From NCBI GenBank assembly GCA_049688015.1, contig JBAVJZ010000068.1, positions 1 through 55,644 on the forward strand: DNA of 55,644 nucleotides, written 5' to 3'. The notes under the pieces are model-generated. The model did no database searches and had not been told where the DNA came from. It was given only the letters and a program-made list of their open reading frames with translations. The stretch comes from Candidatus Deferrimicrobiaceae bacterium. GTDB lineage: Bacteria > Desulfobacterota > Deferrimicrobia > Deferrimicrobiales > Deferrimicrobiaceae. Positions within the stretch are counted from its first letter, which is position 1; each line of letters starts with the position of its first letter. Made by a program: the position numbers and the translations under genes. Positions 26,888-48,901 of this stretch are shown here, piece by piece.

Positions 26888-27079
26888 GCGTATCCCCTGG
26901 CGTCCGCAACACGCCCGGAGGACACGCCGGATGCGTGGAATTTCTGATGCCGAAGGCGCATTATATCCCGAAACGCGCGGCAGATGCATCCGCCGCCGCG
27001 GAACGGTTTCACGGCGTTGCGGCCGCCCCGGCCCGTTGCCCGGGCATCGGTCCGCGTTGTTCGTGCGCCACCTGATACT

Positions 27080-27095
27080 ATGTCCTATAGGACAT
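27080..27095. promoter_or_regulatory. perfect 16-bp palindrome ATGTCCTATAGGACAT, probable operator
   Basis: Self-complementary over all 16 positions. Lies 15 nt upstream of the ATG at 27110, in the yeiH / thioesterase divergent region. Confidence 0.5.
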
Positions 27096-27109
27096 TGGGA
27101 GAGCCCATT

Positions 27110-27565
27110 ATGGTGAAAGCAGAAGACTTGCAAAAATATTTACATGAGTACATCCCGATCTCGAAAGCGATGGGAGTAGAGGTTTTAGAGGCGACAGTGA
27201 ACGGTGTTACATTGTGCGCTCCTCTTTACCCGAACATCAACCATCGAGAAACCGTTTTTGGCGGCAGTTCGACGGCGGTGGCAATTCTTTCCGCCTGGTC
27301 GTTACTCTATCTCCGACTGAAATGTGAAAACATAAACCGTCACATCGTGATTCAAAAAAGCACGATGACCTACGAATGCCCGATTACCGACATGTTTACC
27401 GCTTCCTCTGTCGTTCGCGACCCGGCGGCCTGGTTCCGATTTATCACCATGCTCAGGCGAAAGAATCGCGCAAGAATGAGGGTACACTCCATTCTGCACT
27501 GTAACGGCAGAAAAGTAGGGGAACTCGAGGGGGACTTCGTCGCATTCGATTCACCAACCGCCTGA
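27110..27565 (+). CDS. hotdog-fold thioesterase domain protein (YiiD C-terminal-like)
   Basis: 'IPISKAMGVEV...LCAPLYPNINHRETVFGGSSTAVAILSAWSLLYL' matches the PaaI/YiiD_C-type pattern. GGGAGAG RBS. A/T-rich codon usage, unlike the flanks. Confidence 0.65.
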   Translation: MVKAEDLQKYLHEYIPISKAMGVEVLEATVNGVTLCAPLYPNINHRETVFGGSSTAVAILSAWSLLYLRLKCENINRHIVIQKSTMTYECPITDMFTASSVVRDPAAWFRFITMLRRKNRARMRVHSILHCNGRKVGELEGDFVAFDSPTA

Positions 27566-27784
27566 CAACAGGTGGAAACGGACGGCTCGCACGGGACAGT
27601 AAGGGAGAACGGAAAGACATTGCGGATGTATCGGATCATCGACCGGATTCCCCCGACGACAGAACTTTCCCAAATTTCCCGAAAATCGTAATATGTCTTC
27701 TGGACGAGGGCAAAATCGCACATACGAGCGTTTGGTCCGGACCCGATCGAAACACAACACTTGGCCATACAGGGAGAAACCTTC

Positions 27785-28258
27785 ATGTGTAAACACCGAC
27801 TGTTTTCCGCCAAGGAGTGGCAGGCGCTCCAGTTCGCCGTTATTGATGTGTTCATGATGGTTTCCGAAATAGAAGGTTCAACGGGAATGGATGAGGAGGA
27901 GCAGAATGCGTTCATCGATCTTCTGGAGAACCCGGCATCGATCGAAAACACGCTCCTGCGTGAACTGCTTGCGTCGATAGCCCCTACGTGGAAACACATC
28001 CTCGATGCATATTATTCGCAATATCAGCTTAACGAGGCCTATTTCGCAGGATCCTTTGCCCGCGCCAGGGCGCTTGTCGACGGCAGGCTGGGCAAGGACG
28101 AGGCCCAGGCTTTCAAGGTGGCCCTCACTGCGCATTTTGGCGGCATCATCGCAAACGCTTCCGGGAATGCGGAACCCGGGATGGGCCGATTGAGCGATGA
28201 CGAAATCCAGGCGATAACCGCCATCGCGATTTGGCTCGGTTCGGATCCTTCGCGCTGA
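27785..28258 (+). CDS. hypothetical helical protein, tentatively TerB-like (two repeats)
   Basis: Two segments of the type hydrophobic-helix + 'G...(D/E)EE(I/Q)..' ('VFMMVSEIEGSTGMDEEEQNAFIDLL' and 'IIANASGNAEPGMGRLSDDEIQAITAIAIWLG'). AGGGAGAA RBS before the ATG at 27785. The family call is from memory only. Confidence 0.45.
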   Translation: MCKHRLFSAKEWQALQFAVIDVFMMVSEIEGSTGMDEEEQNAFIDLLENPASIENTLLRELLASIAPTWKHILDAYYSQYQLNEAYFAGSFARARALVDGRLGKDEAQAFKVALTAHFGGIIANASGNAEPGMGRLSDDEIQAITAIAIWLGSDPSR

Positions 28259-28276
28259 GAACATTGGCGGGAAAAG

Positions 28277-29248
28277 ATGAAAATATTCCTTAGCTGGTCC
28301 GATGAGACAAGTCGTGCGATTGCGTCGGCTCTGGGGGATTGGATTCCCTTCGTGATTCAAGCCGTGGAGACATACGTACCACCGGAAGATATCCGAAAGG
28401 GAACGAGATGGGCAAATGATGTCTCGAAAGAGCTGAACCAGTCATCTTTTGGAATATTATGCGTCGTCCCCGGCAACGCGGGAGCACCGTGGTTGAACTT
28501 CGAGGCGGGCGTTCTTTCAAAATCCCTGGATGTGTCAAACGTGATCCCCTTGCTCATAGATGTAGATAAGTCGGAACTGGACAATGGACCGCTTGCCCAA
28601 TTTCCATCTGCTATTTTCGAAAAAAATGGCATGTATCAGATCCTGGAGACGATCAACGAAAAAACAGAGAAGGGGAGATTAAGCGAGGATCGCTTGCGGG
28701 ATACCTTTGATATATGGTGGCCAAAACTCAAGCTGGATGTTGGATCTATCAGAAAAAAAGAGAAACCGGATGCAGAGGAGACGGAAAAGACGCCCGACAC
28801 CGATGAACCGAAAAAAACAGCCGACACCGATAAACCGAAAAAAACAACCGACACCGATGAACCGAAAAAAACAGCCGACACCGACGAACCGAAAAGGACC
28901 CCAAAACGGACTGTCGAAGCGGCAAGAAAAAGCGAGGAAATAAAACCACAAGATACCGGCAAGCCCGCAAAAAAGGTTGCCGCCAGGCCTGCACCAGAAG
29001 AAATAGAGATCGAAATGCTAAACGTGTTGTACGACCCTCCTGGATATACACCCCGAACAGCGGATGCCGTCGGCTACAAGGTGGATATCTCCGCTCAAAA
29101 AGCGAGAGAGCACCTGGACAAACTGGAGAGAAACAATTACGTCAGTGAACATTTGTACGTCGGGAGACCAAAGGAATATTCCCTTGCTCCGAAAGGAAGG
29201 GAATATTTGACCAAGCACAACCTGTTGAAGAAACGGCGGGACAGCTAG
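28277..29248 (+). CDS. TIR-domain protein with tandem-repeat linker and C-terminal winged-helix domain
   Basis: N-terminus 'MKIFLSWSDETSRAIASAL...DIRKGTRW...SSFGILCVVPGNAGAPWLNFEAGVL' follows the bacterial TIR/TIR_2 pattern, including the conserved Glu. Residues ~174-209 are four DTDEPKKTA repeats. The C-terminus 'EMLNVLYDPPGYTPRTADAVGYKVDISAQKAREHLDKLERNNYVSEHLYVGRPKEYSLAPKGREYL' has wHTH topology. Confidence 0.75.
   Translation: MKIFLSWSDETSRAIASALGDWIPFVIQAVETYVPPEDIRKGTRWANDVSKELNQSSFGILCVVPGNAGAPWLNFEAGVLSKSLDVSNVIPLLIDVDKSELDNGPLAQFPSAIFEKNGMYQILETINEKTEKGRLSEDRLRDTFDIWWPKLKLDVGSIRKKEKPDAEETEKTPDTDEPKKTADTDKPKKTTDTDEPKKTADTDEPKRTPKRTVEAARKSEEIKPQDTGKPAKKVAARPAPEEIEIEMLNVLYDPPGYTPRTADAVGYKVDISAQKAREHLDKLERNNYVSEHLYVGRPKEYSLAPKGREYLTKHNLLKKRRDS
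28796..28903 (+). repeat. in-frame 27-bp tandem repeat x4 (DTDEPKKTA units)
   Basis: GACACCGAT(G/A)AACCGAAAAAAACA(G/A)CC is repeated head to tail. It lies inside the TIR gene and generates spurious antisense ORFs. Confidence 0.9.
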
Positions 29249-46450: not shown

Positions 46451-48901
46451 TCAGCGTGCCGGCGCGATCCCTCCCTTGCTGTCCCGCCAATAGGGAAACC
46501 ACACCAGCGAAACCAGGGAGACGGAGATGTCGGTCTTCCTCGGCCGGACCTCGCACGTCTCCAAGTCCTCCGCGAGGGGGTCGGTGCCGGCTTTGAGCTC
46601 TTCGGCCTCCTGGTCCAAAAGCGCCTGAAGGTCGGCAAGCTGCCTCGAAAGCGCCTTCAGGTTCTCCTCGGCCCGTGCAATATCCTGCGACTCCTTGAGG
46701 GTGCGGCCTGCTCCCCGTGCCGTGGTAGCGGCCCTCCCGAGCGTGGACTGCGTGATGGTCTTCCGGCCGGTCAACGCTCCGAGGAGGGTCGCCCCGAAGG
46801 AGATGGCGGTCGAAAGCTTCTGCTGCGTGGCCTGTGCCTTTTCCCGTTCCACCGCCTGCTCGGCGCGACGGATTCTATCTGTAAGGGTCGCGATCTTTGG
46901 TGCATACTTCTGCCGCAACCGCTCGACCTGCTGGTCCCGCTTCTCCCGGGCGGCCTGCGTAATCCGGATGCGAAAATCCCGCTCCGACTCCCCCGGCTCG
47001 GAGACGACCTTTAAAGACGGACTTTTAAACAGTTCCAGCTTCTTGTTCCGGTAGACCCACTCCTTGAACGCAGCCCCCCACTCCGGGTACCTCTTCACAT
47101 TGGACGCTTCACGGGGCAACTCCCCAAAGGAGGAGTCCTGGTCGTGGGGGAACTTCTCGAGATCGCTCTCCGGTATCTCCGTTTCCTGCGCCTCGTCCCA
47201 GTCGACCGGAGAGGGGCCTTCGGAAAACTCGCCCAGCAGGCAGACCTCCTTTTGGGCGGCGACCCCGATTTTCGCGTTGGCGTAATAGATTTTGGCGCCT
47301 CCCAGCAGCATCGGCTCGTAGTGAAGGCTTCCCCCCTCCGACTCCGCGACACGGACCGGGAGGAAGAACTGGGGGACGCCGGAGGGCAGCACGGGGCGGG
47401 CGGACGCCGGTGCCGTGGGACGCGCTTTCGGCGCGGGCGCTTCTGCCGCGGCGGGCTTCGCTGCGGGAACCGGCTCGGGCTGTGACGATTTGACCGGGTC
47501 CATCAGCCGTTTGATCTGCGTGCGGGTCAAGGGCCCCCGAAGGTACGACATCGCCCACCGGGTCTGGAAAACGACCGGCGCATCCTCATGGACGTTGTTC
47601 ATCAGGAACACCCGCTGGCCCAGGCCGGCGAGGATCTGCTCCATCCGCTTTCTGTCGAATCTGCCCGCACCGCCGGCCGCCGCCCCCTCGAGGCCGTCCA
47701 GTACCCGCTCCTTGTCCCGCTCGGTCTGCAGCCTGCCGAGGAACCACGTCCCCGCGTTGGACAATCCCTTGTAATCCAGGTCCACGGGATTCTGCGTGGC
47801 GAGAACGATCCCCAGCCCGAACGCCCTGGCCTGCTTCAAAAGCGTCAGCAGCGGGGCCTTCGACGGGGGGTTGGCAACGGGGGGAAAGTACCCGAAGATC
47901 TCGTCCATGTAGAAAAGCGTCCGCAGGCTGGTCGTACCCGATTGGGAGCGCATCCACCCCAAAAGCTGGGTGAGAAGGAGTGAGACGAAGAACATCCGCT
48001 CCGTGTCGTTCAAGTGGGCGACGGAGAAGATCGATACCCGGGGCTTTCCTCCCTCTGTGTAGAACATACGATCGATATCCAGCGGGGCTCCTTCGAGCCA
48101 AGCGGAAAAGCCGGGCGCCGCCAGGAGGTTGTTGAGCTTCATGGCGAGGGCGAACCGGTCCCTGGAAGGGAAGAAGGACTCGAGGTCGAAGACACCGATG
48201 CGGGCCACCGGCGGCGACTGGATCGCCTGGATGAACCCGGCGAGGTCCAGATCCTGCCCCTGCTTCCAGGAGGTGGTAAGGATCGTGGAGAGGAGAATGT
48301 GCTCCCTGCTCTGGATCGGATCGGCCTCTACCCCCAGGAGGTTGAGCAGGCTGGTCACCGTGGTGGCAATCCGCTCCCCCAGCAGTTCGCTGTCTTCTGT
48401 TACGGCCTTCCCCGGGAAGGAGAACGACTTGAGGATGGAGACGGGCAGCCCCGCCGTGCTGCCCGGCGTGTAGATGGTAAACTCTGCGGAGTCTTTAAGT
48501 TTGCGGATCCGCGTACCGTCCTGCCCCCACTCGGCCAGCCCCTTCTTCCAGAGGTCCGCCTGTTTGGCGGCGTACTCCTGCGGGGAGATCCCTTTCCTGC
48601 GTGCATCCTCTTCGTTGATCCAGGGAAGAAAATCGGCGTCCTTCAAGTCGGGGAAGGTCAGGAGAAGGTTGGCAAGATCCCCCTTGGGATCCACCACGAT
48701 GGCGGGGACGCCGTCGATCACCGCTTCTTCCAGGAGCCCGATGCAAAGCCCCGTCTTTCCGCTCCCCGTCATCCCCACGCAGACCGCGTGGGTGACCAGG
48801 TCCCGGGAATCGTAGAGGACCAGGTCGTCCTTGAGGGCGTTTTTCGCAAGGTCGAATTCGCGTCCGAGGTAAAACACCCCAAGTTTTTCGAAATCCTGCA
48901 T
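46451..48901 (-). CDS. HerA/FtsK-clade P-loop ATPase (DUF87-like) with long C-terminal coiled-coil extension
   Basis: Walker A 'GMTGSGKTG' (48752..48775), Walker B 'LFYMDEIFGYF', 'IVLATQNPVDLDYK'. C-terminal ~250 aa is heptad-rich ('ERLRQKYAPKIATLTDRIRRAEQAVEREKAQATQQ...LKALSRQLADLQALLDQEAEEL'). GGGAGGA RBS. Confidence 0.75.
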   Translation of the reverse strand: MQDFEKLGVFYLGREFDLAKNALKDDLVLYDSRDLVTHAVCVGMTGSGKTGLCIGLLEEAVIDGVPAIVVDPKGDLANLLLTFPDLKDADFLPWINEEDARRKGISPQEYAAKQADLWKKGLAEWGQDGTRIRKLKDSAEFTIYTPGSTAGLPVSILKSFSFPGKAVTEDSELLGERIATTVTSLLNLLGVEADPIQSREHILLSTILTTSWKQGQDLDLAGFIQAIQSPPVARIGVFDLESFFPSRDRFALAMKLNNLLAAPGFSAWLEGAPLDIDRMFYTEGGKPRVSIFSVAHLNDTERMFFVSLLLTQLLGWMRSQSGTTSLRTLFYMDEIFGYFPPVANPPSKAPLLTLLKQARAFGLGIVLATQNPVDLDYKGLSNAGTWFLGRLQTERDKERVLDGLEGAAAGGAGRFDRKRMEQILAGLGQRVFLMNNVHEDAPVVFQTRWAMSYLRGPLTRTQIKRLMDPVKSSQPEPVPAAKPAAAEAPAPKARPTAPASARPVLPSGVPQFFLPVRVAESEGGSLHYEPMLLGGAKIYYANAKIGVAAQKEVCLLGEFSEGPSPVDWDEAQETEIPESDLEKFPHDQDSSFGELPREASNVKRYPEWGAAFKEWVYRNKKLELFKSPSLKVVSEPGESERDFRIRITQAAREKRDQQVERLRQKYAPKIATLTDRIRRAEQAVEREKAQATQQKLSTAISFGATLLGALTGRKTITQSTLGRAATTARGAGRTLKESQDIARAEENLKALSRQLADLQALLDQEAEELKAGTDPLAEDLETCEVRPRKTDISVSLVSLVWFPYWRDSKGGIAPAR

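Follow-up and report, generated by a model that had tools for sequence, protein, structure and literature searches.

How is a stretch of low-GC (guanine plus cytosine) DNA with three co-directional genes, the last of which encodes a TIR domain joined to a helix-turn-helix of the winged type (wHTH), to be understood within an otherwise GC-rich bacterial sequence: as one jointly working defence module, or as unrelated genes that came to lie side by side? The question is raised by positions 27,080–29,248 of contig JBAVJZ010000068.1 (assembly GCA_049688015.1) from a Candidatus Deferrimicrobiaceae bacterium, which was analysed over a stretch of 55,644 nucleotides (nt), called the window here. An earlier note on this DNA had read the three genes, encoding a thioesterase, a helical protein of 157 amino acids (aa) and a TIR-wHTH protein of 323 aa, as a candidate module that could not be assigned to a described system. 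With moderate confidence, we favour a different explanation, in which the low-GC stretch is a patchwork of three single-gene cassettes, each with a distribution of its own, in a variable slot of the chromosome whose borders are a conserved ABC transporter for amino acids and the TIGR01777 epimerase gene, and in which the last gene encodes a stand-alone accessory TIR enzyme of the type known from phage AC1, which would be tethered to DNA by its wHTH, would cleave NAD+ and would take part in genetic conflict. Judged from sequence, only TIR-wHTH is probably a conflict-type gene among the three.

The compositional observation from which the earlier note started was borne out. The stretch has a GC content of 0.508, the lowest among all 2169-bp windows of the 55.6-kb sequence, while the rest of the window has a mean of 0.627 with a standard deviation of 0.019, which places the stretch at z = -6.1; in a sliding profile the flanks lie at 0.62–0.69 and the region from approximately 27000 to 29200 falls to 0.47–0.56. 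A windowed GC and codon-usage profile had been proposed as a check, and the stretch proved to be the global GC minimum at its own size. The same holds for the codons, said to end often in A/T here and in G/C in the flanks: the GC content at third codon positions (GC3) is 0.58 in the thioesterase gene, 0.65 in the 157-aa gene and 0.53 in TIR-wHTH, against 0.81–0.91 in the flanking ABC permeases, yeiH and the epimerase. The three open reading frames (ORFs) were also found as described, all on the forward strand and the last two 18 nt apart, flanked by a Cons_hypoth698/YeiH protein and a TIGR01777-type epimerase (Pfam scan), whose convergent gene lies 14 nt from the end of the TIR-wHTH ORF at 29248. 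In agreement with the earlier note, a tRNA scan found no tRNA across the window and no integrase turned up in the 8 kb on either side of the syntenic locus L003; a classical genomic island was rejected on these grounds, and no mobility gene was seen in the variants examined of the slot between ABC permease and epimerase.

The predicted architecture of the 323-aa protein, a TIR domain, a repeat linker and a wHTH, was confirmed by several searches. Although Pfam TIR_2 is matched under its gathering score (9.9e-5), residues 1–177 match the PADLOC model PDLC03016 'TIR-TM' at 2.8e-68 over model positions 1–176 of 293, and phrog_13899 at 7.7e-55. In an AlphaFold2 (AF2) model built from 22 homologues, residues 1–162 and the wHTH (242–313) have a predicted local distance difference test score (pLDDT) of ~90, and residues 163–236 are disordered with a pLDDT <50. 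The N-terminus is thereby predicted to adopt a flavodoxin-like TIR fold: its first Foldseek match in the PDB is the TIR-APAZ protein of SPARTA (8i87_A, E 1.2e-5) at ~16–18% identity, followed by the plant TIR proteins RPV1, RUN1, L7 and Roq1 and the SpbK filament (9phb), with a probability of 1.00. The Glu in NFEAG, called conserved in the earlier note, is E76, which together with W72 is invariant in alignments of 22 and of 11 sequences and across the family, including members without an HTH; the Glu is kept in hundreds of divergent relatives. A full-length profile searched against the PDB returned wHTH matches only, and solved TIRs were reached with a TIR-only profile made from 11 diverse family members, which placed E76 on the Glu of SSWCLDEL (AtTIR, 3jrn), STWCLEEL (Roq1), both from plants, and NWTEYE (the bacterial 7uxr) with weak E-values of 0.0014–0.06 and W72 on the W of the solved-TIR motifs. 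E76 appears by this alignment to occupy the catalytic Glu position of the TIR domain, in the W-x-x-x-E motif of the alpha-C helix. Of the two features on which the TIR assignment hinged, the fold is predicted and the Glu is present.

The C-terminus is predicted to be a wHTH of the DNA-binding type and similar to MarR, PadR and TubR. The AF2 model gives the order helix-helix-helix-strand-strand (H242–251, H262–268, H273–285, E289–292, E300–303), Foldseek aligns it with MarR (4rgu) at a root-mean-square deviation (rmsd) of 3.1, the BFVD database contains a structural match to TubR at an rmsd of 2.0 Å, and PadR is matched at 0.003 in the profile-versus-PDB search; the Pfam matches HTH_20, HTH_45 and TrmB are all below their gathering scores. 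The last 75 aa would accordingly share the fold of MarR, PadR and TubR proteins (rmsd 2–3 Å), whereas they differ from MarR and PadR by forming a single wHTH without dimerisation helices, fused to an enzyme domain. Between the two domains, Tandem Repeats Finder (TRF) detects a 27-nt repeat at 28794–28895 with 3.8 copies and the unit PDTDEPKKT. Homologues that are otherwise 85–93% identical have lengths of 296, 305, 314, 323 and 332 aa, and these steps of 9 aa between close relatives suggest replication slippage; more distant TIR-wHTH relatives reach 389–409 aa. The repeat appears to represent length variation in a cytoplasmic tether, comparable to that of variable-number tandem repeats.

The TIR domain is not an orphan, and the statement that it could be assigned to no described system did not hold. 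A tblastn search of phage genomes found two homologues, one in the P2-like phage AC1 and the other in the lambdoid phage mEp390. AC1 gp02 is 48% identical over 159 aa and comes third in a small gene cluster, the first two products of which carry transmembrane (TM) helices; the PADLOC models 2TM-TIR, 1TM-TIR and TIR-TM match AC1 gp04, gp03 and gp02 at 7e-58, 3e-75 and 3e-118. The three-gene locus was cloned and protects against lambda, LF82_P8 and P2, and it was proposed that the TIR protein signals to the membrane proteins (Rousset et al., 2022; PMC9122126). By sequence, the window protein belongs to the family that PADLOC models as 'TIR-TM'. It shares with AC1 gp02 the TIR domain and the helical extension, N-terminal in both proteins, and the motifs MKIF(L/I)SWS, VIQ, KGTRW and PWLNFEAG with the invariant Glu. 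The two differ beyond this region: AC1 gp02 covers positions 1–286 of the TIR-TM model and the window protein only 1–176 of 293, AC1 gp02 continues in a helical domain (ILEEIL.L.R) where the window protein has the repeat linker and wHTH, AC1 has two membrane-protein partners and none is found beside TIR-wHTH in the window or in its other contexts, and the AC1 locus lies in a phage hotspot whereas the window is a Deferrimicrobiaceae-type chromosome. Membership in the 2TM-1TM-TIR system was therefore rejected, the TIR-TM match being partial and genes for 2TM-TIR and 1TM-TIR being absent. The possibility that the trio is an already named system came out divided in this way, the TIR domain matching TIR-TM and the system itself being absent.

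The second phage homologue, mEp390 gp47 (L079:4001-4819), is 34% identical, matches PADLOC TIR-TM at 1.6e-57, and is a lone gene with the Q antiterminator on one side and the holin genes on the other, placed on the opposite strand and enclosed by annotated rho-independent terminators, which is the position of a classic lambdoid moron. This lone moron suggests that stand-alone members of the AC1-type family act without TM partners. The family is large: among 1.84 billion cluster representatives (clusters at 50% identity), 10,611 matches were obtained with E <=1e-3, of which 1,691 reach E <=1e-30. In 87 collected family loci the C-terminus is the AC1-type helical one, beginning with the ILEEIL.L.R helix, in 57, a wHTH in 24 (some of them redundant) and something else in 6, and a small TM ORF lies just upstream of only ~12 of 67 AC1-type genes according to a crude hydropathy scan, which suggests that many members stand alone. 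As far as these sequences indicate, the wHTH replaces the usual helical C-terminal module of the family, within which C-terminal modules appear interchangeable. In other lineages, TIR-wHTH proteins of ~255 aa have a short linker, the same domain order and the same KGREYLV.N.L ending. In some further TIR-wHTH or TIR relatives (P0079, P0083, P0091 and P0165, with ~460-556 aa, and P0267) the N-terminus is extended by ~200 conserved residues or by a second wHTH, and these additions seem to indicate further architectural diversification.

The mosaic nature of the stretch follows from where the three genes are found. Full-length homologues of TIR-wHTH, 50–93% identical, come from metagenome-assembled genomes (MAGs) of Candidatus Deferrimicrobiaceae or Deferrimicrobia and from metagenomes. 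The order of the window, ABC transporter, yeiH, YiiD_C thioesterase, 157-aa gene, TIR-wHTH, epimerase and photolyase, recurs in the loci L003/L010 and L080-L085. In addition, TIR-wHTH follows a GGDEF gene and precedes tRNA-Glu/tRNA-Gln and the glutaminyl-tRNA synthetase (GlnRS) gene in L001, L002, L087-L089, L092, L096 and L097, lies among small ORFs with a NikA-like gene ahead of DUF1326/PpoB2 in L094, lies between YkuD and a response regulator in L095, and occurs in further contexts in L091, L093 and L014, so that it is seen in at least five different genomic contexts. Neither the thioesterase, the 157-aa gene nor a recognisable defence gene lies beside it in the non-syntenic contexts examined. 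L001, L011, L086-L097 and L109-L110 have TIR-wHTH but neither of its two companions, and L006, L007, L008 and L009 have the 157-aa gene but no TIR-wHTH; L006 and L001 belong to one 664-kb contig, on which they are 390 kb apart. Whether the trio, or at least its last two genes, co-occur and lie in defence islands had been proposed as a check; what was found is a gene without conserved neighbours and without known defence genes alongside.

The slot itself tells the same when the epimerase is used as an anchor to compare what lies between it and the ABC permease. A first state (L105-L108, epimerase 76–80% identical) has only a membrane protein of 133–158 aa and no TIR-wHTH, a second (L109/L110) a PaaI thioesterase and TIR-wHTH, a third (L011) PaaI, a pair of ribbon-helix-helix (RHH)/RelE-like genes and TIR-wHTH, and the fourth, that of the window, yeiH, YiiD_C, the 157-aa gene and TIR-wHTH; in L011, L109 and L105-L108 the slot contains no YiiD_C gene. 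This slot collects small accessory genes, and TIR-wHTH is an accessory, mobile single gene whose presence is polymorphic there. Its GC content is below that of the surroundings in 8 of 9 loci, e.g., 0.43–0.50 versus 0.55–0.62. Two of the other occupants may be described further: the membrane protein of relatives without TIR-wHTH (L105:3127-3528, L107:7948-8424) is conserved, multi-pass and without a Pfam match, and the pair in L011 (L011:754-1243, another Deferrimicrobiaceae MAG) resembles an RHH antitoxin with a RelE-ParE-like toxin and lies directly upstream of TIR-wHTH.

At nucleotide resolution the boundary between the last two genes can be placed precisely. Positions 27643-28246 of the window are 87% identical to L007 7868-8462, the neighbourhood of which is unrelated, and homology to the TIR-wHTH loci of other contexts starts at 28263; this break between 28246 and 28263 means that two separate cassettes abut within ~15 nt. 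Across contexts, a leader of 45–85 nt (…CCGGAGCGTCAGAACGCTTATCTGAATTGGTGGGGAAAGATG), which includes …CCGGAGCGTCAGAACGCTTATCTGAATTGG…, and ~15 nt past the stop codon are kept with TIR-wHTH; in the window the 157-aa cassette cuts the leader short, so that its last ~14 nt alone remain. For TIR-wHTH the leader could serve as promoter, operator or ribosome-binding site, and it holds an imperfect CCGGA…TC(C/T)G(G/A) inverted repeat. A structured leader RNA and the presence of a known RNA family hereabouts were rejected, Rfam giving no match at E <=1 in the region and RNAalifold only -1.66 kcal/mol without covariation in the leader. An integron cassette was likewise rejected, for the space behind the ORF is too short for an attC site (homology stops ~15 nt after the stop codon, and the stop of the epimerase gene follows at 14 nt) and no integron integrase was seen. 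In some contexts the neighbours are of a mobile type: L011 has the RelE toxin-antitoxin pair, L094 the NikA-like gene and L096/L097 an integrase element.

Table 1. Features of the low-GC stretch and of related loci (window positions unless a locus is named)
Feature	Position	Strand	Basis or remarks
Three ORFs	27110-27565, 27785-28258, 28277-29248	all +	ORF calling; 18 nt between last two
Perfect 16-bp palindrome ATGTCCTATAGGACAT	27080..27095	no strand	14 nt upstream of thioesterase ATG
Stand-alone hotdog thioesterase, YiiD_C family	27110..27565	+	PF09500, TIGR02447; GC3 0.58
157-aa orphan cassette	27643..28258	+	142 nt conserved upstream DNA plus ORF 27785-28258
Retained 3' end of leader with ribosome-binding region ATTGGCGGGAAAAG	28263..28276	+	cassette junction
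Predicted TIR domain and helical extension, aa 1-162	28277..28762	+	PADLOC TIR-TM, phrog_13899, AF2, Foldseek
Putative catalytic-position Glu76 codon, inside PWLNFEAG	28502-28504	+	alignment to solved TIRs
Predicted disordered P/D/T/E/K-rich linker, aa 163-241	28763..28999	+	AF2 pLDDT, TRF
Predicted C-terminal wHTH, aa 242-313, MarR/PadR/TubR-like	29000..29215	+	AF2, Foldseek, profiles
Leader copies in other contexts	L001:7920-8003, L011:1257-1339, L086:195-277, L094:7799-7881, L095:7921-8003; window 28263-28276		conserved upstream
Short-linker clade, ~255 aa	P0163, P0197, P0209, P0210, P0229, P0236, P0243		

If the favoured explanation of a stand-alone TIR enzyme is correct, the protein could act as follows. 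The wHTH would tether it to DNA, either foreign DNA or specific sites, and several molecules gathered there would allow the TIR domains to self-associate. To our knowledge, all characterised NADase TIRs need self-association, and TIR assembly is known in SPARTA, TIR-SAVED, TIR-STING and SpbK filaments. The assembled domains would cleave NAD+, leading to its depletion or to an ADP-ribose-derived signal, and the outcome would be the arrest of the infected cell (abortive infection) or of the invading element. The C-terminal module would be the variable, presumably input-receiving part of the protein and the TIR domain its output. A bolder version, which we put forward only tentatively, holds that TIR-wHTH is a self-contained DNA-sensing immune protein, that the wHTH recognises phage or plasmid DNA, that crowding on this DNA nucleates an NAD+-burning TIR assembly, that the 9-aa repeat linker tunes reach or threshold, and that the gene spreads as a promoter-plus-ORF cassette independently of an integrase.

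Several observations weigh against an immune enzyme. No known defence genes flank TIR-wHTH in the contexts examined, and the other ORFs of the window are housekeeping genes of central metabolism and transport, which give no guilt-by-association signal. AC1 gp02, the closest characterised relative, acts together with two membrane proteins that the window lacks, so its mechanism may not transfer. No TIR-wHTH was found on viral contigs, the scan of which gave TIR-only relatives, and neither integrase, repeats nor an attC-like site was found at the ends of the TIR-wHTH cassette. Finally, the gene is fairly conserved (50–93% identity) across one family, which fits a lineage-specific regulatory role too. 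Phage carriage of TIR-wHTH is also unsupported by BFVD, where TIR and wHTH matches lie on separate proteins and never on one protein. A defence-island context was rejected, PADLOC matching nothing in the trio besides TIR-TM and giving generic matches only elsewhere in the window. These comprise weak matches of an 816-aa ATPase-like ORF (46454-48901, reverse strand) to mad8 (4e-12) and HerA, and matches of other ORFs to mad3 (1.4e-35), mad2 (2.4e-19), ZorB/MotB and AriA, all of which probably reflect generic ATPase, kinase or MotB domains in housekeeping genes.

The main rival, which we consider rather unlikely but which the lack of defence neighbours keeps alive, is a one-component transcription factor regulating host genes, in which the TIR domain would control DNA binding by the wHTH, either by sensing NAD+ or ADP-ribose derivatives as ligands or as a module for oligomerisation. 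A flavodoxin-like domain, a linker and a C-terminal wHTH indeed resemble receiver-wHTH regulators, homologues are labelled as MarR-family regulators by the Joint Genome Institute (JGI), and no defence neighbours were found. Inactive TIR/SLOG-class domains are described as nucleotide sensors and SLOG-HTH and Nudix/WYL-HTH fusions as regulators (PMC9503650), which lends such a reading published precedents. The leader, conserved across contexts and yet unstructured as RNA, also makes an autoregulatory operator conceivable. However, neither the catalytic-position Glu nor the W that precedes it by four residues varies anywhere in the family, non-HTH members included, and this favours an enzyme over a degenerate sensor. 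None of the five contexts shows a conserved target gene beside TIR-wHTH, which is an accessory gene of low GC that moves from site to site and whose nearest characterised relative is anti-phage.

An improbable and minor rival is that of a signal-generating TIR similar to ThsB, which would make a messenger derived from ADP-ribose, meant for an effector from another part of the genome, the wHTH being autoregulatory only. Signalling from the TIR protein to TM partners is what the authors of the AC1 study proposed (PMC9122126), and the small TM ORFs upstream of ~12 of 67 AC1-type loci would fit it, but no SLOG, Macro, SIR2, SLATT or TM effector lies beside TIR-wHTH in any context, mobile defence genes seldom have their sensor and effector at unlinked sites, and most family members apparently stand alone. 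Least probable, and largely refuted by the gene distribution, is the original proposal of one co-transcribed and jointly working defence module made of all three genes or of the last two, including a functional link between TIR-wHTH and the TerB-like protein: the shared orientation, the mere 18 nt between the last two genes, the arrangement kept in at least seven related loci (L003, L080-L085) and the loss of the leader in the window lineage, which makes transcription together with the 157-aa gene probable, speak for it, but all trio loci are close relatives in one syntenic block, indicating a single event, the last two genes occur apart from each other, in one case at a distance of 390 kb within a single contig, nucleotide homology breaks between them, and neither upstream protein has a PADLOC match or a TM helix.

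Returning to the stand-alone TIR enzyme, likenesses to characterised TIR proteins help to place it. mEp390 gp47 and SpbK of Bacillus ICEBs1 are single-gene TIR proteins without a linked effector, the former of the same family as the window TIR and the latter represented among its structural matches by the TIR filament 9phb; SpbK senses a phage protein. In contrast to the window protein, gp47 has a helical C-terminus, and neither gp47 nor SpbK has a nucleic-acid-binding domain or a repeat linker. With SPARTA, the TIR-APAZ protein of which is the best structural match of the window TIR, the window protein might share a sequence of events from nucleic-acid recognition through TIR oligomerisation to NADase activity, but Argonaute and APAZ are absent in the window, and a simple wHTH would stand in place of guide-directed recognition. 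ThsB of Thoeris is likewise a small bacterial TIR protein with a catalytic Glu; here, no ThsA (SIR2/Macro-SLOG) is found beside the gene or among the matches of 42 ORFs of the window, and the best PADLOC match is TIR-TM rather than ThsB. The absence of the usual TIR partners stated in the earlier note, ThsA, a STAND NTPase, a CD-NTase or an Argonaute, was upheld by Pfam, PADLOC and NCBIfam: these scans of the 323-aa protein gave no short pAgo/APAZ, CD-NTase/cyclase, SAVED/STING/cNMP-binding domain or STAND NTPase, and the adjoining genes encode a thioesterase, an orphan protein and an epimerase.

The TIR family and the swapping of sensor modules on immune effectors are already well known, and we found no specific description of a TIR-wHTH fusion in the literature searched, a search which was incomplete and gives weak evidence of novelty. 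The finding is less striking than the earlier note held, since the trio dissolves, the TIR domain has a validated named relative and there is no defence-island signal. TIR domains are nevertheless the enzymatic core common to bacterial, plant and animal innate immunity, and how they are activated is the central question for each system. Going by its sequence, the window protein is a clean candidate for a minimal DNA-tethered TIR enzyme, and, if it is an immune protein, the fusion to a plain wHTH would offer a minimal model of nucleic-acid-driven TIR activation; a DNA-sensing TIR-wHTH would, if true, be the simplest known nucleic-acid-triggered TIR system, one polypeptide without Argonaute, STAND or cyclase. 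Stand-alone members of the AC1-type family are not called as systems by current tools because these require the two membrane partners. The locus is also a cautionary case, showing that co-directional genes set apart by their composition can be unrelated cassettes that have piled up and not an operon-level system.

The two upstream genes are best described separately. The first was correctly recognised as a stand-alone hotdog thioesterase, with matches above the cutoffs to PF09500 (1.4e-41, 142 bits, cutoff 27) and TIGR02447 (130.7 bits, cutoff 97.1). It is treated as an independent gene and no part of a TIR system, its place in the slot being taken by a PaaI thioesterase or a membrane protein in the relatives named above. 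The 157-aa protein appears to be soluble and restricted to the Deferrimicrobiaceae-type clade, as only 41 homologues were found, each at least 59% identical. No Pfam, NCBIfam or PADLOC match was obtained for it at E <=1, no PADLOC model matched the thioesterase either, and a crude hydropathy scan predicted no TM helix in any of the three proteins. Its sequence contains three D-E-x-Q-A-F/I repeats. The earlier description of this protein as helical agrees with its AF2 model, a six-helix bundle with a pLDDT of 77, and the additional attribution to TerB is plausible at most, resting on a top Foldseek match in the PDB to 2h5n (PG1108), which is weak in E (0.17) with a probability of 0.99 and a TM-score of 0.47–0.58, and finding no counterpart in the profile libraries. 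We take 2h5n to be a member of the TerB-like superfamily in SCOP.

The perfect 16-bp palindrome reported ahead of the genes is present, and its frequency does not exceed chance, with 4 such palindromes in the window versus 1.5 (maximum 5) in shuffles. The site is imperfect (…GGATAT) in the syntenic relatives L003, L080-L082 and L084 and identical only in L083. It is possibly part of a promoter or operator, within chance frequency; an operator shared with the TIR-wHTH promoters elsewhere was rejected, because the palindrome occurs only at this same spot in the window and L083 and its count is not above that of the shuffles.

Some minor observations concern the other contexts of TIR-wHTH. Where TIR-wHTH adjoins the GGDEF gene, it has tRNA-Glu and tRNA-Gln close by on its downstream side (L001:9836-9989, L087:2572-2725), and upstream of it a T-loop-like GGTTCGAATCC string precedes a terminator hairpin; a tRNA or tRNA fragment at this string was dismissed, as the tRNA search made no such call. 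In two metagenome contigs an element with an integrase and an excisionase-like HTH_17 protein is inserted at tRNA-Glu/tRNA-Gln (L096:10551-13220, L097:10551-12759). The DUF1326-PpoB2 pair, finally, is found both beside TIR-wHTH (L094:9026-10417) and ~3 kb from the 157-aa gene (L007:3556-4950), a recurrence that may be a coincidence or a remnant of shared regional synteny.

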